Positions 5,905 to 20,122 of a stretch of DNA of 64,000 nucleotides are shown one piece after another. Where the stretch lies: positions 17,785-81,784 of IMG/VR virus record IMGVR_UViG_3300020336_000246; one strand, 5' to 3'. Origin of the DNA: a virus. Its lineage: Duplodnaviria; Caudoviricetes. The notes under the pieces were generated by a model, which saw only the letters and a program-made list of their open reading frames with translations, had not been told where the DNA came from and made no database searches. A program made the translations under genes and the position numbers. Numbering within the stretch: position 1 is the stretch's first letter; every line of letters starts with the position of its first letter.

Positions 5905-5933
5905 TTGACATTAGTTATCTCTTTTGTTATAAT
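5905..5933 (+). promoter_or_regulatory. Sigma70-type promoter for tmRNA; a TAAATA box follows at 5950-5955
   Basis: Perfect TTGACA-N17-TATAAT. Confidence 0.85.
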
Positions 5934-5939
5934 AGTAGC

Positions 5940-6262
5940 ATATTAAGGCTAAATATCACTGCAATTGATGATAGCAACGTATGTCACAAGAGCAAGACCC
6001 GGGTGCAATTCCCGGCCACTCCACCAATTCAATATACCCCCGTCGGGGTGGAATTAGGATCGATTGGCTTGTTAAGGTTGAAGGAGACTGTCCGGATGTA
6101 AGCTCGGTTAACGCGAACAAACGTTATAGATGCAAACGATAATGCACTAGACAACGTTACTTTCGTAGATTTTTCTGCGCCAGTAACTGCGTTTAATGAG
6201 GATTTTGCCCTAGCGGCATAATCGCTCGGGGTTGGCAACTTACCTAGCAACAGAAAAGTTGC
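5940..6262 (+). ncRNA. ssrA: Circularly permuted two-piece tmRNA, alphaproteobacterial type
   Basis: Acceptor piece first (T-arm CCGGG-TGCAATT-CCCGG, CCACTCC-A-CCA ending 6026), then an 18-nt intervening segment, then the coding piece starting GGGGTGG (6045) with a G3-U70 pair; tag ORF at 6132-6221; outer ends approximate. Confidence 0.93.
6132..6221 (+). other. tmRNA proteolysis-tag reading frame ANDNALDNVTFVDFSAPVTAFNEDFALAA*
   Basis: Resume codons GCA AAC GAT AAT; ends ALAA-TAA. Confidence 0.9.
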
Positions 6263-6336
6263 GTCTATTACTACATAGGCAAAGCCTATAATAATTTCTA
6301 AATAAATATCGTGCTAGGTGAGAAGGAGTAATTATA

Positions 6337-7401
6337 ATGCCACCACGCAATCATAGAAACTGGTTGAAAGAACCAGCAGTAGAATATATTAGTAGCGAGT
6401 GCTATAATAATCAAGACATACACGATCAAGAACAAGAACAAATCTTTAGTAAGGTTTGGATACCTATGTGTCATAAGAGTGAACTACCAAACGAGTTAGA
6501 CTTTAGAACAACACAGATAGCAGGAGTCAATGTTCTTGTGTATAACACAGGCAAAGAATTTAGAGCATACCGTAACTATGGAGAACAAACACCAGCAGGA
6601 ACACTAGGAGCACCTATCGTAACTGTTGAACCTCAGTTGCATTTGGAAGTAAAGCACGGAGGTATGATATGGGTAACACTTAATCCTGATCCTGATCAAA
6701 CTGTAGAACAATGGACAGCAGGTGCATTTGATTGTATTGCTGATGCTATTGATACAGAGGAACTAGAAGTATTCCATTATCATAAAGCAATCATTCCTAC
6801 AAACTACAAACTATGGCATGATACCAATAGTGAATTCTATCATGACTTCATGCACTATTTTAATCGTGTAACAGGATTCAATGATGAATACTTTGCTCGT
6901 AAGAATATTGCGTTCGATAACGGTCATGTAAATGTAAGTTCTTTTACTGTCAACTATACCGAGTTTGATAAAGATGGAGATAGAGGAGAGTTAAGTTTTC
7001 CTAACTTGCCACCCAACCAATGGTATATGGTAGACTTGTTTCCAGGCTTCAACTTTAACCTACGTGGTAGTGCATATAGATCAGATAGTGTTACTCCATT
7101 AGGACCTAACAAAGTTCTTATTGAGTTTAGAGGTTATGGACTTAAGAATGATACCAAGGAAGAAAGACTCACACGTATCAGGCACCATAATACTATTTGG
7201 GGACCTTTTGGTAGAAACTTGCATGAAGACTTGCTAGGTGTTACAGGACAGGGTGCATCAATGGCTCCAGGTACTGAACGTAGGAACATTCTACATGGTA
7301 GACACGAGAACTCAACTATCCACGATGAAGTTGGTATGCGTCACTACTACGCAGAATGGGGCAAATACTTAGACGTAAACCCATCAAATCCATTGACATA
7401 A
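6337..7401 (+). CDS. msmA: Ring-hydroxylating oxygenase alpha subunit, methanesulfonate monooxygenase MsmA-like, lacking the Rieske cluster motif
   Basis: NYKLWHDTNSEFYHDFMHYFNRVTGFND mononuclear-Fe region and PPNQWYMVDLFPG, WGPFGRNLHED segments recalled from MsmA; no CxH...CxxH motif. Confidence 0.8.
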   Translation: MPPRNHRNWLKEPAVEYISSECYNNQDIHDQEQEQIFSKVWIPMCHKSELPNELDFRTTQIAGVNVLVYNTGKEFRAYRNYGEQTPAGTLGAPIVTVEPQLHLEVKHGGMIWVTLNPDPDQTVEQWTAGAFDCIADAIDTEELEVFHYHKAIIPTNYKLWHDTNSEFYHDFMHYFNRVTGFNDEYFARKNIAFDNGHVNVSSFTVNYTEFDKDGDRGELSFPNLPPNQWYMVDLFPGFNFNLRGSAYRSDSVTPLGPNKVLIEFRGYGLKNDTKEERLTRIRHHNTIWGPFGRNLHEDLLGVTGQGASMAPGTERRNILHGRHENSTIHDEVGMRHYYAEWGKYLDVNPSNPLT

Positions 7402-7566: not shown

Positions 7567-7642
7567 GGGGGATTAGCTCAGCCGGGAGAGCGCCTGATTT
7601 GCATTCAGGAGGTCAGCGGTTCGATCCCGCTATCCTCCACCA
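7567..7642 (+). tRNA. tRNA-Ala(TGC)
   Basis: Full cloverleaf, G3-U70 pair, anticodon loop TT-TGC-AT, encoded CCA. Confidence 0.97.
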
Positions 7643-7652
7643 CACCACTTAC

Positions 7653-7729
7653 GGGGGTGTAGCTCAGTTGGTTAGAGCGTCCGCCTGTCACGCGGAAGGC
7701 CGAGGGTTCGAGTCCCTTCACTCCCGCCA
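7653..7729 (+). tRNA. tRNA-Asp(GTC)
   Basis: Cloverleaf GGGGGTG/CACTCCC, loop CT-GTC-AC, G73, CCA. Confidence 0.97.
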
Positions 7730-7829
7730 TGAAATTTAATCAATTAGATAAATAGATAGGCAGAAGAACACGGTCAATTTTTTTTTGACTGAAATTTTTT
7801 TTGACCTAACAATAGCAAAGGAAAAAGAA

Positions 7830-8660
7830 ATGACGCAACTGATATCCCCACAAAAGTTTACACACTCCACTGGCCTTTTAAGGTCATTTTTTTTGGATAA
7901 AGGATTTGAAGAAGTCCATACCCAAAACAGATTAAGCATACTTGCCGCTTGTGAAGATCCATTCAATGTAGCAACATACAATTACGCCGGCCAGGTATGG
8001 CCCTTACCGCAGACAGGCCAAATGTGGTTAGAACACGAATTATTAAGTAGCCCCTCTAGTAAGGGGTTTTTTTGTGTCTCCACTTCCTATAGACAGGAAC
8101 CAAATGCAATACCAGGGAGACATGATATAATATTTCCTATGTTTGAATTTGAGATGCCAGGTGACATAGATGATCTTAAGAAGATGGAGTATGAGTTATG
8201 TGAACACCTAGGATTTAAAAAGCCTACTGAAAAGACTTATGCTGAATGGCAACAACATTACGGTCATGCTGAAGATTATGAAATGACTGCTGATGAAGAA
8301 ACTAAGATGCACGAAGAGTTTGGTACAACAATGATCACAGACTTCCCAGAACTTACAAGTCCATTTTGGAACATGAGTAGAAATGCTGATGGTAAGACTG
8401 CAAAGAAGATTGATGTTATACTAGGTGGGATGGAAACAATAGGATCAGCAGAACGTTCATGTGATGTTGATATGATGAGAGATACATTCCACAGTATTAC
8501 AGATGGTGCATACAGTAAGCTACTTTACAGTCTGTTTAGCAAGGAACGTGTTGAAGCAGAACTAGAGAAGTTCTTAGAGTTTGACTTCTTTCCTAGAGTA
8601 GGCGGTGGCATAGGTATGACACGTATGATAGCGGCCTTAGAGAAACACTGGAAAGACTAG
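7830..8660 (+). CDS. Class IIb aminoacyl-tRNA synthetase paralogue (Asp/AsnRS catalytic core only; archaeal-type asparagine synthetase-like)
   Basis: Motif 2 SYRQEP..GRH...F.MFEFE and motif 3 GGGIGMTR; no N-terminal OB anticodon domain; start taken at ATG 7830 (track uses TTG 7785). Confidence 0.85.
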   Translation: MTQLISPQKFTHSTGLLRSFFLDKGFEEVHTQNRLSILAACEDPFNVATYNYAGQVWPLPQTGQMWLEHELLSSPSSKGFFCVSTSYRQEPNAIPGRHDIIFPMFEFEMPGDIDDLKKMEYELCEHLGFKKPTEKTYAEWQQHYGHAEDYEMTADEETKMHEEFGTTMITDFPELTSPFWNMSRNADGKTAKKIDVILGGMETIGSAERSCDVDMMRDTFHSITDGAYSKLLYSLFSKERVEAELEKFLEFDFFPRVGGGIGMTRMIAALEKHWKD

Positions 8661-8667
8661 AGTTTAA

Positions 8668-8769
8668 TCTGGGGTGGTGAAACTGGTAAACACGTACAAC
8701 TGTTCATTGTATGGTTAATGTACTGCAATATATTTAACCTTGGAGGTTCGAATCCTTCCCCCAGAGCCA
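8668..8769 (+). tRNA. Non-canonical tRNA-Asn(GTT) with a long variable arm, 102 nt
   Basis: TCTGGGG/CCCCAGA-G-CCA; 3-bp D stem GTG/CAC; TACAA-CTGTTCA-TTGTA; 30-nt variable region; GGAGG-TTCGAAT-CCTTC. Confidence 0.88.
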
Positions 8770-14241: not shown

Positions 14242-14840
14242 TGGAACTTAAAGCGGATCTATGGTTTCCTAGTATTATATTTGCAGGCATAAACGATGTT
14301 ATTGATCGTGGAGCCATTAAGCAAATTGCACAGGCTTGGAGAAACAAAGAACCAGAACTTGCAGGTAATAGCAATGAAGGTGGTTGGCATAGTCGTTCAA
14401 TCGAAAACATTGACATACTACCACCAGAGTTACAACAAGTTTTTAATACAATGGTTATTGAACTTGATAAAGCAGTTGAATCTTGTCGTAACAACATTGG
14501 CTTTCCTCCCTTAAAATTACAAAACTTCTGGATTAACATTAATGGTCCAGGAGCATATCATACACTACACAATCATCAAGATGCTATGTTGAGTGGTGTG
14601 TTCTATATAGATATTCCAACAGAGAATATGGGTGACTTACAGTTTTATCGTGGAGATGAAGCACAATACTACATTCCAGATAACCTAAGCACATACAACA
14701 CAATTACAAGTACTATGGCTACATATCCACCTAAGCCAGGTATGGTTGTTATTTTCCCTTCATGGGTCAAACACGCAGTAAAACAAAATAGGTCGGATGC
14801 AGAGAGAATAGCAATATCATTTAATTATGGAGCGAAATAA
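14241..14840 (+). CDS. 2OG-Fe(II) oxygenase-like protein (TIGR02466-type)
   Basis: HNH motif, MLSGVFY, VIFPSWVKHAV, RIAISFN. Confidence 0.85.
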   Translation: MELKADLWFPSIIFAGINDVIDRGAIKQIAQAWRNKEPELAGNSNEGGWHSRSIENIDILPPELQQVFNTMVIELDKAVESCRNNIGFPPLKLQNFWININGPGAYHTLHNHQDAMLSGVFYIDIPTENMGDLQFYRGDEAQYYIPDNLSTYNTITSTMATYPPKPGMVVIFPSWVKHAVKQNRSDAERIAISFNYGAK

Positions 14841-15886
14841 TGAGAATAGAACAAGACATTAAGTTGGACTACAAAGACGTACTGTTTAAACCTAAAAGAT
14901 CAAAATTAGAAAGCAGACGTGATGTCGACTTAACTCGAACGTTTAAGTTTCATTACGGTAATGAATGGACAGGTGTACCTATCATGTCAAGCAATATGGA
15001 CGGTGTTGGTACATTCGCAATGGCAAAAGTATTACAGGATCACAAGATGATTACTGTAATGAGAAAACATTATTCAGTAGACGACTGGACTAAAAATGCT
15101 AAAGGTGTTAAGATGAAATACCTAAGTGTTTGTACAGGTACAGGAGTTATATGGGATCCTGATGCACCAGACTATGCTACAATGAAAGCAGTACTGGCAA
15201 TGTATCCGGACATTAAGTTTATTACTGTTGATGTTGCTAATGCTTATCATGAAAACTATGCAGACTTTATTTCAAGAGTTAGAGATGCTTATCCTGACAA
15301 AACTATTATAGCTGGTAATGTTATATCAGCAGAGATGACAGAAGAACTTATTATCAAAGGTGCTGACATTGTTAAGTGTGGTATTGGTCCCGGATCAGTA
15401 TGTACTACACGACTAATGACAGGTGTTGGTGTTCCGCAACTATCAGGAATCATTGAGTGTGCTGATGCGGCCAACGGTATTGGTGGACACATTATTGCTG
15501 ATGGCGGTTGTGTTTATCCAGGAGATGTAAGTAAAGCCTTTGGAGCAGGAGCTCACTTTACAATGCTAGGCGGTATGTTAGCAGGACACGATGAAAGCGA
15601 AGGTGAAGTAGTAAACGGCAAGATACAGTTCTATGGTATGAGTTCAGATGCGGCCATGGCAACACATGGTACTCGTAAAGATGGATATCGTGGAGCAGAA
15701 GGCAAGGTTGTTGAACTTCCACACAAAGGCCCTGTTGAGAAAACTGTTATTGAAATACTTGGCGGACTAAGATCCACTTGCACATACATTGGTGCAAAAC
15801 GTATTAAAGATATGCCTAAGTGTACAACGTTTGTAAGATGTACACAACAGGTTAATCAAGTGTTCAATCAGTTCAATGCAGATTAG
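14840..15886 (+). CDS. guaC: GMP reductase
   Basis: MRIEQDIKLDYKDVL, GIGPGSVCTTR catalytic loop, GGLRSTCTY. Confidence 0.96.
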   Translation: MRIEQDIKLDYKDVLFKPKRSKLESRRDVDLTRTFKFHYGNEWTGVPIMSSNMDGVGTFAMAKVLQDHKMITVMRKHYSVDDWTKNAKGVKMKYLSVCTGTGVIWDPDAPDYATMKAVLAMYPDIKFITVDVANAYHENYADFISRVRDAYPDKTIIAGNVISAEMTEELIIKGADIVKCGIGPGSVCTTRLMTGVGVPQLSGIIECADAANGIGGHIIADGGCVYPGDVSKAFGAGAHFTMLGGMLAGHDESEGEVVNGKIQFYGMSSDAAMATHGTRKDGYRGAEGKVVELPHKGPVEKTVIEILGGLRSTCTYIGAKRIKDMPKCTTFVRCTQQVNQVFNQFNAD

Positions 15887-17078: not shown

Positions 17079-17405
17079 TTGCATAGGAGTGGTACAATGA
17101 TAAGTAATGTTATGGACGTACAAATAGACGAAAAGATTAAACAGAAGATTTTGGAGCCAGCACTATACAAGGTTGTGTTCCTTAATGACGATCTAACACC
17201 AATGGAATTTGTTATCGAATGTCTTGTAGGTATTTTCAAACATACTGATACAACCGCAAGAGACCTTACAGTAAAAATACACGAAGAAGGTTCAGCAATA
17301 GTAGGAGTATATACTTTTGAGATAGCAGAACAAAAAGGTATAGAAACAACTACTTTAGCTCGTACTAACGGATTTCCATTACAAGTTAAAGTGGAAAAAG
17401 AATGA
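17079..17405 (+). CDS. clpS: ATP-dependent Clp protease adaptor ClpS
   Basis: YKVVFLNDDLTPMEFV, IHEEG, EIAEQK, FPL; true start may be downstream. Confidence 0.93.
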   Translation: MHRSGTMISNVMDVQIDEKIKQKILEPALYKVVFLNDDLTPMEFVIECLVGIFKHTDTTARDLTVKIHEEGSAIVGVYTFEIAEQKGIETTTLARTNGFPLQVKVEKE

Positions 17406-17947
17406 GCCTAAAAGAATTAACTTACGAACATCATCGTAACGCAGAAAGACAACAATTTGTAAAGGTACTAATGAGTGGGAAAATAGATCCTAAACTCTAT
17501 GCTACCTTTATGTACAACCAACACCAACAGTATAATATATTAGAAGTTCATGCGATGGCACATGGATTGTTAAACGGTCTAATGGATATTAGACGAGCTC
17601 CTAATATATGGGCAGACTACGAAGAATTATGGGAAGACCACGATAACCCACCACAACTATTATCAGTTACTAAAAAGTATGCCGATCATATTATGAGTAT
17701 CAAAGAAGATTCTCAAAAACTGTTTGCTCATATGTATACAAGACACATGGGCGACCTAAGTGGTGGACAAATGATCCGTAAAAAGATTCCTGGAAGTGGC
17801 ACACTATATGACTTTGAAGACGGTCCTGCTCTTAAAGAATTAATCAGAGAACGTCTAGACGATAGTATGGCCGATGAAGCAAAGATCTGTTTTGATTTTG
17901 CAACACAAACTTTTCAGGAACTAATGGATGTCTCAATCGACAGTTAA
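17402..17947 (+). CDS. hemO: Heme oxygenase (phage HemO/Ho1 type)
   Basis: LKELTYEHHRNAE proximal His; AHMYTRHMGDLSGGQMI. Confidence 0.92.
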   Translation: MSLKELTYEHHRNAERQQFVKVLMSGKIDPKLYATFMYNQHQQYNILEVHAMAHGLLNGLMDIRRAPNIWADYEELWEDHDNPPQLLSVTKKYADHIMSIKEDSQKLFAHMYTRHMGDLSGGQMIRKKIPGSGTLYDFEDGPALKELIRERLDDSMADEAKICFDFATQTFQELMDVSIDS

Positions 17948-19424
17948 AAAAATTGTTATAGTAGGAGGCGGAAGTGCAGGTTGGCTTACGGCCGCTTATG
18001 CCCTATACAATTTACCCAACACACAAATCACACTAGTAGAAAGTCCTAACATACCTATAGTAGGAGTAGGTGAAGCTACTATACTTGGCTTCGACCATTA
18101 CCTAACTGACTGTGGTATACCAACCGAACTATGGACAAAGGAATGTGATGCAACTATTAAACTAGGCACATACTTTCCTAACTGGAGAGGTGATGGTAAA
18201 AACATTTGGCAACCTTTTTACTTTCCAATTGAAATGGCAAAAACGGGTAACTGGCATGATGTAATAGACTTATGCCGAGATGCTAATGTTCCTTTTGAAG
18301 ATTACGAAAAGTGGACTGCTTGGTATGACATCAGTGTTAAGGATAAAAAGATTGCAGGTAACACAACTGCCTGTGGTAGTGAAGCTCATGTAGGTTACCA
18401 TTTAGATGCAGTTAAACTGGCAAACTTCTTAAGCGAATATCTTAATAAGAAGTATCCAAGGTTAAAACATATTAAAGCACACATAGATAAGCCTGTTATA
18501 AAAGATGGAAACATTGAACACGTTGTATTAGAGAACGGTGAAATGGTTACCGGAGACTTCTTTGTTGACTGTACAGGATTTAAAAGATTACTTTCAAATG
18601 CATTAGGCAATAGTAAATGGGTTGACAGAAGTCATATGTTGTTTACAAATGCCGCAGTGGCATCACAGATTAGTTATGAAACAGAAGATGAACCACAGGT
18701 ACCTTATGTAACTGCACAGGCTTGTGATCACGGATGGATATGGAAAACTCCTGTTAAAGATAGAATAGGTAGTGGACTTTGTTACAACAGTGATATAACA
18801 ACTAAACAAGAAGCAGAAGATTATTTTGTACAACATTGGGGAGAACATAGATTAAGAACAGGTAAGTTTAATCATGTACCTTTCAAACCAGAGTACAATG
18901 CAAACAACTGGCGTGGCAACTGTTTTAGTGTAGGACTAGCAAGTGGCTTTATTGAACCACTAGAATCAACAGGACTTGCATTATTAGTAATAGGTAGTTC
19001 AGCACTACACTATATGAAAAAAGGTTATTATGAGCAGGAGGACATGGATAGATTTAACGAGGATATGAGTAACGTGTACGAAGATAGCATGGGCTTTGTT
19101 GCACTACATTATTTTAGCAATCCAAGACAAAGTAAGTTTTGGAGACACGTTGAAGATAACTTTAAAGAAACTGAAAAGATGGAAGAACTATGCACAAACT
19201 TTGCAAGAAACTTTACTCCAAGTTTAGGTGGACAGTTTTTTCCACGTAACACAGAGATATTCCAAGATATAAATTGGAAGCTATGGTTAAACACCGTAGG
19301 TATTAAAACTGCTACTGCCAATTTAGGTGAGCAGGAGAGTAAGGAACTTTTAAATAGAATGAGAGAAGATAATAAAAAAGCTTCTTATCCAGGCTTAACA
19401 AATAGACAATGGAGTAACAGGTGA
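17928..19424 (+). CDS. Flavin-dependent halogenase (tryptophan halogenase family)
   Basis: GGGSAG, VGEAT, ATIKLG (catalytic Lys), GWIWKTP, GFIEPLESTG. Confidence 0.9.
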   Translation: MSQSTVKKIVIVGGGSAGWLTAAYALYNLPNTQITLVESPNIPIVGVGEATILGFDHYLTDCGIPTELWTKECDATIKLGTYFPNWRGDGKNIWQPFYFPIEMAKTGNWHDVIDLCRDANVPFEDYEKWTAWYDISVKDKKIAGNTTACGSEAHVGYHLDAVKLANFLSEYLNKKYPRLKHIKAHIDKPVIKDGNIEHVVLENGEMVTGDFFVDCTGFKRLLSNALGNSKWVDRSHMLFTNAAVASQISYETEDEPQVPYVTAQACDHGWIWKTPVKDRIGSGLCYNSDITTKQEAEDYFVQHWGEHRLRTGKFNHVPFKPEYNANNWRGNCFSVGLASGFIEPLESTGLALLVIGSSALHYMKKGYYEQEDMDRFNEDMSNVYEDSMGFVALHYFSNPRQSKFWRHVEDNFKETEKMEELCTNFARNFTPSLGGQFFPRNTEIFQDINWKLWLNTVGIKTATANLGEQESKELLNRMREDNKKASYPGLTNRQWSNR

Positions 19425-20122
19425 GCGAATCAATTATATGGGATACATTAATTAAAACCCAAGACGACATACTTGACATTTTTAACGAGTATGCAGAGGA
19501 AACAGAAGAAAAGACTTTGAACAAGTTTAATCAACCCGAGAATGGTTGGCTCAATAGAGTATGGGCAAACAAGCACGTTCGAAGAGCTCATATTGATGTC
19601 GTAGATGTACGTAAGGATAAAAGCCTTTGGATGATGCACGTATGTTGTTTTCCAACACTAGACAATGGTGCACCTATATACGGCTTTGATGTTATAGCAG
19701 GTAAACGTAAGATGACAGGTGCCTTTCATGACTTTTCAGCATCTAGTGGAGGAGAGGATCACCCACTATGCGAATGGTACCAAGATGCAGTAAAAGATTT
19801 TATTCCTACAAAACAAAGAGAACTACCACAATGGGCAAAGAATATTTTTAGTCCAGGAATGATTGCCGCTGGTAATGTTGCAACACAAGAAGAAGCAGAA
19901 GCTATTTGTAAACTAGCAGTTGATAACCTAAGAGTATGGTTCCAATCAGTACCTGAATATGCAGGCGATCAACCCACAGATTTTACTGCCGGCTGTCAGG
20001 ACTTCTACTGTCATAATCAGCAACAAAACCCACATACACCACGTGTTATGAAGTCTTTAGGACTTAACGAAGCAGACGTAGATGAATTTTGTACTAATGC
20101 TTTGTTTCCTAAACTAGCATAA
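19421..20122 (+). CDS. pcyX: Ferredoxin-dependent bilin reductase, PcyX/PcyA-like
   Basis: RRAHIDVVD, MMHVCCFP, PIYGFDVIAG, AFHDFS, YCHNQQQNPHT; near hemO; PcyX versus PcyA not resolvable without phylogeny. Confidence 0.82.
   Translation: MSESIIWDTLIKTQDDILDIFNEYAEETEEKTLNKFNQPENGWLNRVWANKHVRRAHIDVVDVRKDKSLWMMHVCCFPTLDNGAPIYGFDVIAGKRKMTGAFHDFSASSGGEDHPLCEWYQDAVKDFIPTKQRELPQWAKNIFSPGMIAAGNVATQEEAEAICKLAVDNLRVWFQSVPEYAGDQPTDFTAGCQDFYCHNQQQNPHTPRVMKSLGLNEADVDEFCTNALFPKLA

Follow-up and report, generated by a model that had tools for sequence, protein, structure and literature searches.

We found that a gene of a marine phage encodes an alpha subunit of the methanesulfonate monooxygenase (MsmA) family that lacks its Rieske cluster, and that bacteria of the SAR116 group carry the same short form in their msm clusters next to a complementary copy, which keeps the Rieske centre and has lost the iron site. 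The phage protein, P0001, is probably the catalytic (mononuclear-iron) half of a split-alpha-subunit methanesulfonate monooxygenase and would be completed by a Rieske half supplied by the host. The gene lies in the stretch of viral DNA analysed here (64,000 nucleotides, hereafter the window), to which all positions below refer unless another contig is named. The gene and its immediate surroundings contain the following features:

Positions 5930 to 6312, plus strand: two-piece (permuted) tmRNA gene called by ARAGORN, adjoining msmA upstream in a conserved synteny and not part of the enzyme.
Positions 6299 to 6308, plus strand: two overlapping TAAATA boxes (6299-6304 and 6303-6308), T4-late-promoter-like by consensus resemblance.
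Positions 6320 to 6328, plus strand: GGAG-rich, Shine-Dalgarno-like GAGAAGGAG, 8 nt before the ATG, as read from the letters.
Positions 6337 to 7401, plus strand: gene for P0001, a Rieske-less MsmA-family alpha subunit of 354 residues plus stop.
Positions 6385 to 6576, plus strand: remnant of the beta-sandwich base of the Rieske domain, residues 17-80 (Pfam Rieske positions 2-41, AF2 model and omega).
Positions 6577 to 6648, plus strand: linker in place of the two cluster-binding loops, residues 81-104, YGEQTPAGTLGAPIVTVEPQLHLE, free of Cys or His ligands (alignment).
Positions 6649 to 7398, plus strand: predicted catalytic domain (Ring_hydroxyl_A), residues 105-354 (Pfam, AF2 and structural match).
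Positions 6832 to 6855, plus strand: EFYHDFMH, residues 166-173, with the putative bridging carboxylate E166 and the predicted iron ligands H169 and H173.
Positions 7225 to 7230, plus strand: E297-D298, the carboxylate iron-ligand position within NLHED (alignment).

The translation opens with MPPRNH and contains three cysteines, at residues 22, 45 and 133. An initial sequence-only reading had described a 354-residue frame with three cysteines and no CxH...CxxH motif, and we likewise found the motif absent. That reading also called the Rieske motif cleanly deleted, which is nearly right: the two cluster-binding loops are gone, whereas N80, a remnant of the P-x-G spacer (PAGTL, residues 86-90) and the beta-sandwich base are retained. 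The Pfam Rieske model, 88 positions long, matched residues 41-80 with its positions 2-41 alone and scored 16.3 bits, below the cut-off of 20.3. Therefore, we judge that P0001 keeps the first third of the Rieske domain and that its cluster-binding part is gone. When aligned with Rieske-bearing relatives, P0001 showed gaps of 7, 9 and 31 columns spanning the two loops, with about 47 residues missing relative to canonical MsmA, Y-G-E at the position of CxH, and all four Rieske ligands absent. The AF2 model (pLDDT 89.3, pTM 0.90; pLDDT 92-98 across residues 20-130) agrees with removal of the two loops from a preserved base. Its best structural matches were the alpha3beta3 oxygenases TPADO (terephthalate dioxygenase), NagG and IadD, followed by Stc2 and CntA. 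A PHROGs search with P0001 gave no useful match, and NCBIfam gave weak N-terminal matches far below the cut-offs.

The catalytic half appears intact, as had been proposed from the letters. Ring_hydroxyl_A (PF00848) matched residues 141-345 (E 6.5e-7; 29.9 bits against a cut-off of 24.9). The EFYHDFMH segment corresponds in alignment to the His motif of Rieske oxygenases with solved structures and is identical in all 79 aligned viral coding sequences, the window's own among them. The second segment, NLHED at residues 294-298 (NLHEDL, 294-299), carries a nearly invariant E297-D298 pair, for which terephthalate dioxygenase has its M-E-D segment in the alignment. H169, H173 and D298, the residues of the predicted 2-His-1-carboxylate iron site, are thus conserved. 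The ribosome-binding site and TAAATA boxes reported before the start are also present, the boxes being part of the called tmRNA gene at its 3' end. There is a perfect sigma-70-like promoter by the tmRNA gene as well, at 5905-5933. At the other end of the protein, canonical and cellular short MsmA finish in a conserved ...(V/A)AAE, whereas the viral C-termini examined, including that of P0001, lack the ...AAE tail; the copy of phage HMO-2011 ends in ...EKAA.

The assignment to MsmA, which the sequence-only reading had made, withstood comparison with full-length relatives. The nearest of these in a 50%-identity representative library, P0125, has CxH-X26-CxxH and EFYHDYLH. Among species-representative genomes, 76 of the 80 best loci were matches of about 403 residues at 51-57% identity, and the X26 motif was found in all 72 of these full-length loci that were checked; their sources included Filomicrobium, Hyphomicrobiaceae and Puniceispirillales. 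The genome scan used the single pattern [EP]LE[VI]FHY[HQN][KR] and hence under-sampled SAR116, most of whose short forms read EME or DME, a gap remedied by a search across 192 Puniceispirillales genomes. The catalytic domain of one cellular short form, P0273, is 64-72% identical to that of canonical X26 MsmA, including Filomicrobium. These comparisons place P0001 as MsmA-derived, closer to MsmA than to other oxygenase families. In a quick tree search run without bootstrap, all short forms made one clade (SH-aLRT 100) nested within X26 MsmA and reached by a long branch (0.71); the viral clade (SH-aLRT 98) was sister to the SAR116 short clade, with HMO-2011 basal to both. The tree indicates a single origin of the Rieske deletion, in a clade to which SAR116 cellular genes also belong. 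A second Rieske-less lineage, represented by P0122 (358 aa, representative library; 60% identical to P0001), fell outside the main short clade; either its placement reflects a long branch or it lost the motif independently. We rejected two metagenome-assembled genomes, labelled 'Hellea' (L082) and 'Legionellales' (L085), as cellular hosts of the short form: their genes sat inside the viral clade, with a GC of 34-38% and a phage-like ORF layout, a search of both genomes for the Rieske half described below found none, and they are probably mis-binned phage DNA.

The short form is widespread and constrained. More than 1200 database proteins of 350-367 residues resemble P0001. None of its 121 best database homologues carries the Rieske motif and 118 of them have EFYHDFMH; loss of the Rieske centre is therefore a family trait, neither chance nor misassembly. 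The sequence-only reading had suggested a survey of viral contigs for the same deletion, and the short form proved to be encoded on at least 592 IMG/VR contigs, so the deletion is not unique to this one; a further 541 metagenome stretches were confirmed to carry it. That reading had also suggested an estimate of dN/dS, which we obtained with our own NG86 script from 79 viral coding sequences (636 pairs with dS 0.1-1.2). Omega was 0.086 overall, or about 0.09, and the viral copies are under purifying selection. The catalytic domain was the lowest region (0.054), with 0.16 for the N-terminal remnant (residues 1-80) and 0.21 for the linker; the cellular SAR116 short copies were held more tightly still than the viral ones (0.027). 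Metatranscriptomic libraries of two studies yielded contigs that include pieces of 212-263 nt identical to the gene. We rejected these as evidence of expression, since a contig is no proof of transcription and could stem from carried-over DNA.

The viral gene family is not new, and the missing motif in phage MsmA has been known since 2015. Henriques and De Marco (2015, PMC4433239) reported that many predicted MsmA proteins from GOS and virome data, including that of HMO-2011, lack the Rieske motif, that the bacterium IMCC1322 has two MsmA-annotated proteins of which only one carries it, and that all organisms proven to grow on methanesulfonate have an MsmA with an X26 Rieske motif. The HMO-2011 protein has been discussed as the product of a viral auxiliary metabolic gene (PMC4928673), and a 2021 preprint described viral msmA as marine-only and under purifying selection, with no mention of the Rieske centre. 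What is new, as far as we could find, is the host-side complement of Rieske-less MsmA in the SAR116 msm cluster: our literature search, incomplete in coverage, returned no paper describing a complementary arrangement of this kind.

In the Puniceispirillales (SAR116), 15 of the 192 genomes encode the short form inside the msm cluster. The cellular products have 362-368 residues, are 73-75% identical to P0001, and share its deletion and its iron site. A second, Rieske-bearing half was matched in 14 of the 15 genomes, in 12 of them within frames of 788-822 residues, mostly on the same contig and 4-12 kb from the short msmA; one partial genome among the 192 had the Rieske half without the short form. 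Co-occurrence of the two over the 192 genomes gave a Fisher p of 3e-19 with kinship ignored, a value that overstates independence because the pattern may stem from as few as one or two evolutionary events (a single subclade, and G003 from another order). No canonical MsmA was found in the short-form SAR116 genomes, and a single genome among the 192 has one. The short-form genomes include a single contig of 2,753,527 bp, which we take to be that of IMCC1322, the host of HMO-2011.

The Rieske half is a fusion protein. In the cluster of the long cellular contig L084 it is the first gene, and its product (P0272, 857 aa) joins an MsmA-like body to a Pyr_redox_2/Reductase_C ferredoxin reductase. The body has an intact X26 Rieske motif, NYKENHDD at the position of EFYHDFMH, and a 21-residue gap over NLHED. 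By Pfam, the fusion contains Rieske, Pyr_redox_2 and Reductase_C and no Ring_hydroxyl_A, which is confined to the short form. A three-way alignment with canonical MsmA made the losses complementary: the fusion is without the His-His-Asp iron ligands and the short form without the Rieske loops. The Rieske domain of the fusion is nearly as conserved as that of canonical MsmA (A4, mean column identity 71%), and the fusion Rieske domains formed one clade (SH-aLRT 96) beside a Puniceispirillales canonical MsmA, in the part of the MsmA tree to which the short clade also attaches. AF2 modelled the alpha body of the fusion (pLDDT 79.5, pTM 0.83) with an alpha-subunit fold and low confidence exactly at the degenerate segments.

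Five SAR116 loci and L084 share one gene order: a divergent ABC transporter (MsmE-like binding protein, permease and ATPase), then the fusion, msmB, a Rieske ferredoxin, variable ORFs and the short msmA, with genes for LysR, the sulfite exporter TauE and a PanB-like protein 3' of the latter. The ferredoxin (133 aa) was always present. On L084 and a second long cellular contig, L083, the short gene lies amid msm-type and C1/sulfite genes, with GcvT-like, FolD and FTHFS genes flanking the cluster. In some SAR116 clusters, and not in others, genes for a dmsABC-like molybdopterin oxidoreductase are inserted after the Rieske ferredoxin gene and before the short msmA (962, 249 and 312 aa; L202:8912-13499 in G408, an IMCC1322-type genome). 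Directly upstream of the SAR116 short msmA is an ORF of 245-293 residues (188 in L204) with no Pfam match (L084:6924-7802; L203:7822-8556; L202:13555-14382); it could encode a further subunit, and an NdmE-like structural role for it is a guess. One SAR116 assembly (G002, contigs C16 and C45) contains two diverged copies of the whole fusion-plus-short-msmA cluster, which could reflect a strain mixture or a real duplication.

Together, the complementary degeneration of the short form and the fusion implies a split alpha subunit. We propose that msmA was duplicated in SAR116 and that the copies degenerated in complementary ways: one would have lost the Rieske cluster loops and kept the iron site, and the other would have kept a near-canonical CxH-X26-CxxH Rieske centre, lost His-His-Asp and become fused to an FAD/NAD ferredoxin reductase. 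Electrons would then pass from NADH through the reductase domain to the Rieske ferredoxin, on to the Rieske centre of the fusion, and, over a subunit boundary, to the iron of the short protein, where methanesulfonate would be converted to formaldehyde and sulfite. HMO-2011, a podovirus, and a large clade of T4-like myoviruses that includes the window phage would each have taken the short catalytic half only. During infection, the phage short half may assemble with the Rieske half, beta subunit and ferredoxin of the host, and sulfonate oxidation, kept up or raised in this way, could supply the phage with reducing power and C1 units, or with sulfur. We regard it as somewhat more probable than otherwise that SAR116 bacteria oxidize methanesulfonate with a split alpha subunit and that abundant ocean phages of at least two unrelated morphotypes carry only the iron half to complete the host complex. 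For the phage copy, the most likely reading is that it plugs into host machinery rather than being a decayed enzyme, because the SAR116 msm operon holds both a Rieske-less form and a Rieske-bearing, iron-site-dead copy. The sequence-only reading had suggested an extra catalytic site joining host trimers, which comes close to this split-subunit model; it differs in presuming a phage-specific deletion that meets a normal host MsmA, while the deletion belongs to a clade with SAR116 cellular genes that stand beside an iron-site-less Rieske-reductase fusion. Some points count against the split-subunit model. Only some neighbour pairs in a mixed three-fold ring would be productive, and the phage genes differ from those of SAR116 in their lower GC (33-44% in phage contexts versus 42-47% in SAR116 clusters) and in the missing ...AAE tail.

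The phages carry the short gene by itself. Homologues of the fusion, msmB, ferredoxin, transporter and TauE were absent from 804 kb of viral loci (the entire 81.8-kb contig from which the window derives among them) and from 897 kb of metagenome loci. The msmABCD/msmEFGH-type context present around the cellular short-form relatives thus has no counterpart for P0001, no partner being found either on the phage contig or within 1.7 Mb of flanks from related viral and metagenome sequences. Likewise, no paralogue or Rieske/ferredoxin gene was found in the 81.8-kb contig, and no Rieske domain in the complete HMO-2011 genome or in three relatives of the window contig (G498-G500, 74-96 kb). A profile-derived scan of IMG/VR returned no MsmA-type Rieske domain, against at least 592 short copies. 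CheckV completeness was 21-26% for the 74-96-kb contigs of the window phage type and so points to a genome size of roughly 350 kb. Three database homologues are on contigs of 244-342 kb (P0014, P0023 and P0057, the last two on about 342 kb), and these contigs may be complete genomes of the window phage type. A partner gene may lie elsewhere in the window phage genome, because CheckV puts the completeness of the window contig at only about 21%.

The synteny of the window, with nrdA, nrdB, glutaredoxin, PAAR, cold-shock protein, tmRNA, msmA, tRNAs and an AsnRS-like gene, recurs in about half of the loci, and about five loci carry the terminase and head-tail adaptor genes of HMO-2011. The region downstream of msmA in the window (7567-8769) encodes tRNA-Ala, tRNA-Asp, an odd 102-nt tRNA called as Asn(att) by ARAGORN, and, after the first two, a 276-residue class II synthetase core (tRNA-synt_2, without the anticodon domain). 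Further metabolic genes in the window are a GMP-reductase/IMPDH-family gene (14840-15886) and a homologue of flavin-dependent (tryptophan-type) halogenases (17402-20122). Comparison of NrdA and of a baseplate protein was uninformative as to the host, the window NrdA matching its cyanomyovirus and its pelagimyovirus homologues alike at about 70% identity.

That phages carry the short gene alone would also be expected if the short protein were self-sufficient and independent of the cluster, working as a homo-oligomer whose iron site takes electrons directly from a soluble host ferredoxin docked at the former Rieske loops, or reacting without external electrons. The large, old and constrained viral clade fits such an enzyme, as do the position of the deletion in a short, fast-evolving linker where a donor could dock and the occurrence of a Rieske ferredoxin in every cellular cluster. 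However, just 1 of the 15 SAR116 genomes has the short form without the fusion, the conservation of the fusion's Rieske domain argues that the fusion is the donor, and E166, the putative inter-subunit bridging carboxylate, is invariant. We consider a self-sufficient protein unlikely.

The same split architecture could instead act on another substrate, a small sulfonate or methyl-sulfur compound that may be tied, for instance, to DMSO/DMS genes. The X26 motif shared by all proven methanesulfonate growers so far (PMC4433239), the dmsABC-like genes within some SAR116 clusters and the long branch to the short clade speak for this. Against it, the short form matches canonical MsmA at 64-72% identity over the catalytic domain, also in Filomicrobium insigne, a species whose genus contains validated methanesulfonate degraders, and the MsmE-like protein, TauE and C1-folate genes fit formaldehyde and sulfite as products. 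A different substrate is, in our judgement, quite improbable.

In alpha3 Rieske oxygenases, the Rieske centre of one subunit serves the iron site of its neighbour. A Rieske-less subunit inserted into a canonical alpha ring would, on general grounds, deprive the neighbouring iron site of its donor, and the sequence-only reading had accordingly raised a dominant-negative or regulatory role, in which the phage protein poisons host MsmA oligomers and shuts down sulfonate oxidation. Such an inhibitor would need no intact active site, and we disfavour the idea for this reason: the iron ligands and the motifs around them do not vary among the 79 aligned viral copies, the active site is the most constrained part of the protein, and cells use the same form as their only iron-site-bearing MsmA. 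An inhibitory role therefore seems very unlikely. A decaying or misassembled gene without function, to which the missing motif by itself might point, can be set aside given the common architecture and length of the copies on hundreds of viral contigs and in over a thousand database proteins, the low omega, the confident AF2 model and, weakly, the identical pieces in metatranscriptomic-library contigs.

HMO-2011 gp61 (YP_008320323, annotated 'methanesulfonate monooxygenase', 360 aa) is Rieske-less like P0001, 67% identical to it and in the same clade. It differs in belonging to a 55-kb podovirus, in its gene neighbourhood, and in its position basal to the SAR116-plus-myovirus clades. The host of HMO-2011 is known, and it encodes the complementary Rieske half if its genome is, as we assume, the IMCC1322-type contig; the short MsmA of that type is 75.8% identical to gp61 and 73% identical to P0001. 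The SAR116 short MsmA resembles P0001 in the deletion and the iron site, and differs in sitting in a full msm cluster with the fusion, in a linker that reads L-C-P-x... where phages have N-Y-G-E..., and in its ...AAE tail. Canonical MsmA (Methylosulfonomonas, Filomicrobium and others) provides the closest Rieske-bearing homologues and shares EFYHD[FY][ML]H and NLHED with P0001, but has the defining CxH-X26-CxxH centre.

A precedent for such a division exists in the N7-demethylase of Pseudomonas putida CBB5, in which NdmC is without a Rieske cluster and the cluster is carried by the reductase NdmD (PMC4408171). The proposed SAR116 arrangement would follow the same logic as NdmC/NdmD/NdmE by analogy, with a Rieske-less catalytic subunit and the Rieske centre on a reductase polypeptide. 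The two are independent in origin. Where the Ndm reductase carries a Rieske domain only, the SAR116 reductase (FAD Pyr_redox_2 type) is joined to an entire degenerate alpha body; unlike Ndm, the SAR116 clusters include a beta subunit and a separate Rieske ferredoxin, and we noticed no GST-like NdmE gene in them. We know of no phage involvement in Ndm.

These results bear on how viral and bacterial msmA genes are read. Viral msmA is counted in ocean surveys as an auxiliary gene of the sulfur cycle and assumed to act like MsmA; without a Rieske centre, however, viral MsmA alone cannot work in the textbook manner. The exact complement in the host operon turns an apparent defect into a testable design, and HMO-2011 and IMCC1322 offer a cultured phage-host pair for testing split MsmA. 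Moreover, the catalytic gene of the SAR116 type will escape msmA primers and marker searches built on the X26 Rieske motif. For enzymology, the arrangement would be a natural example of a Rieske oxygenase alpha subunit with its two cofactor sites divided between two polypeptides. If the split-subunit model is true, SAR116 and its phages would provide a second, independent NdmCDE-like architecture and, to our knowledge, the first to draw one of its halves from a virus.
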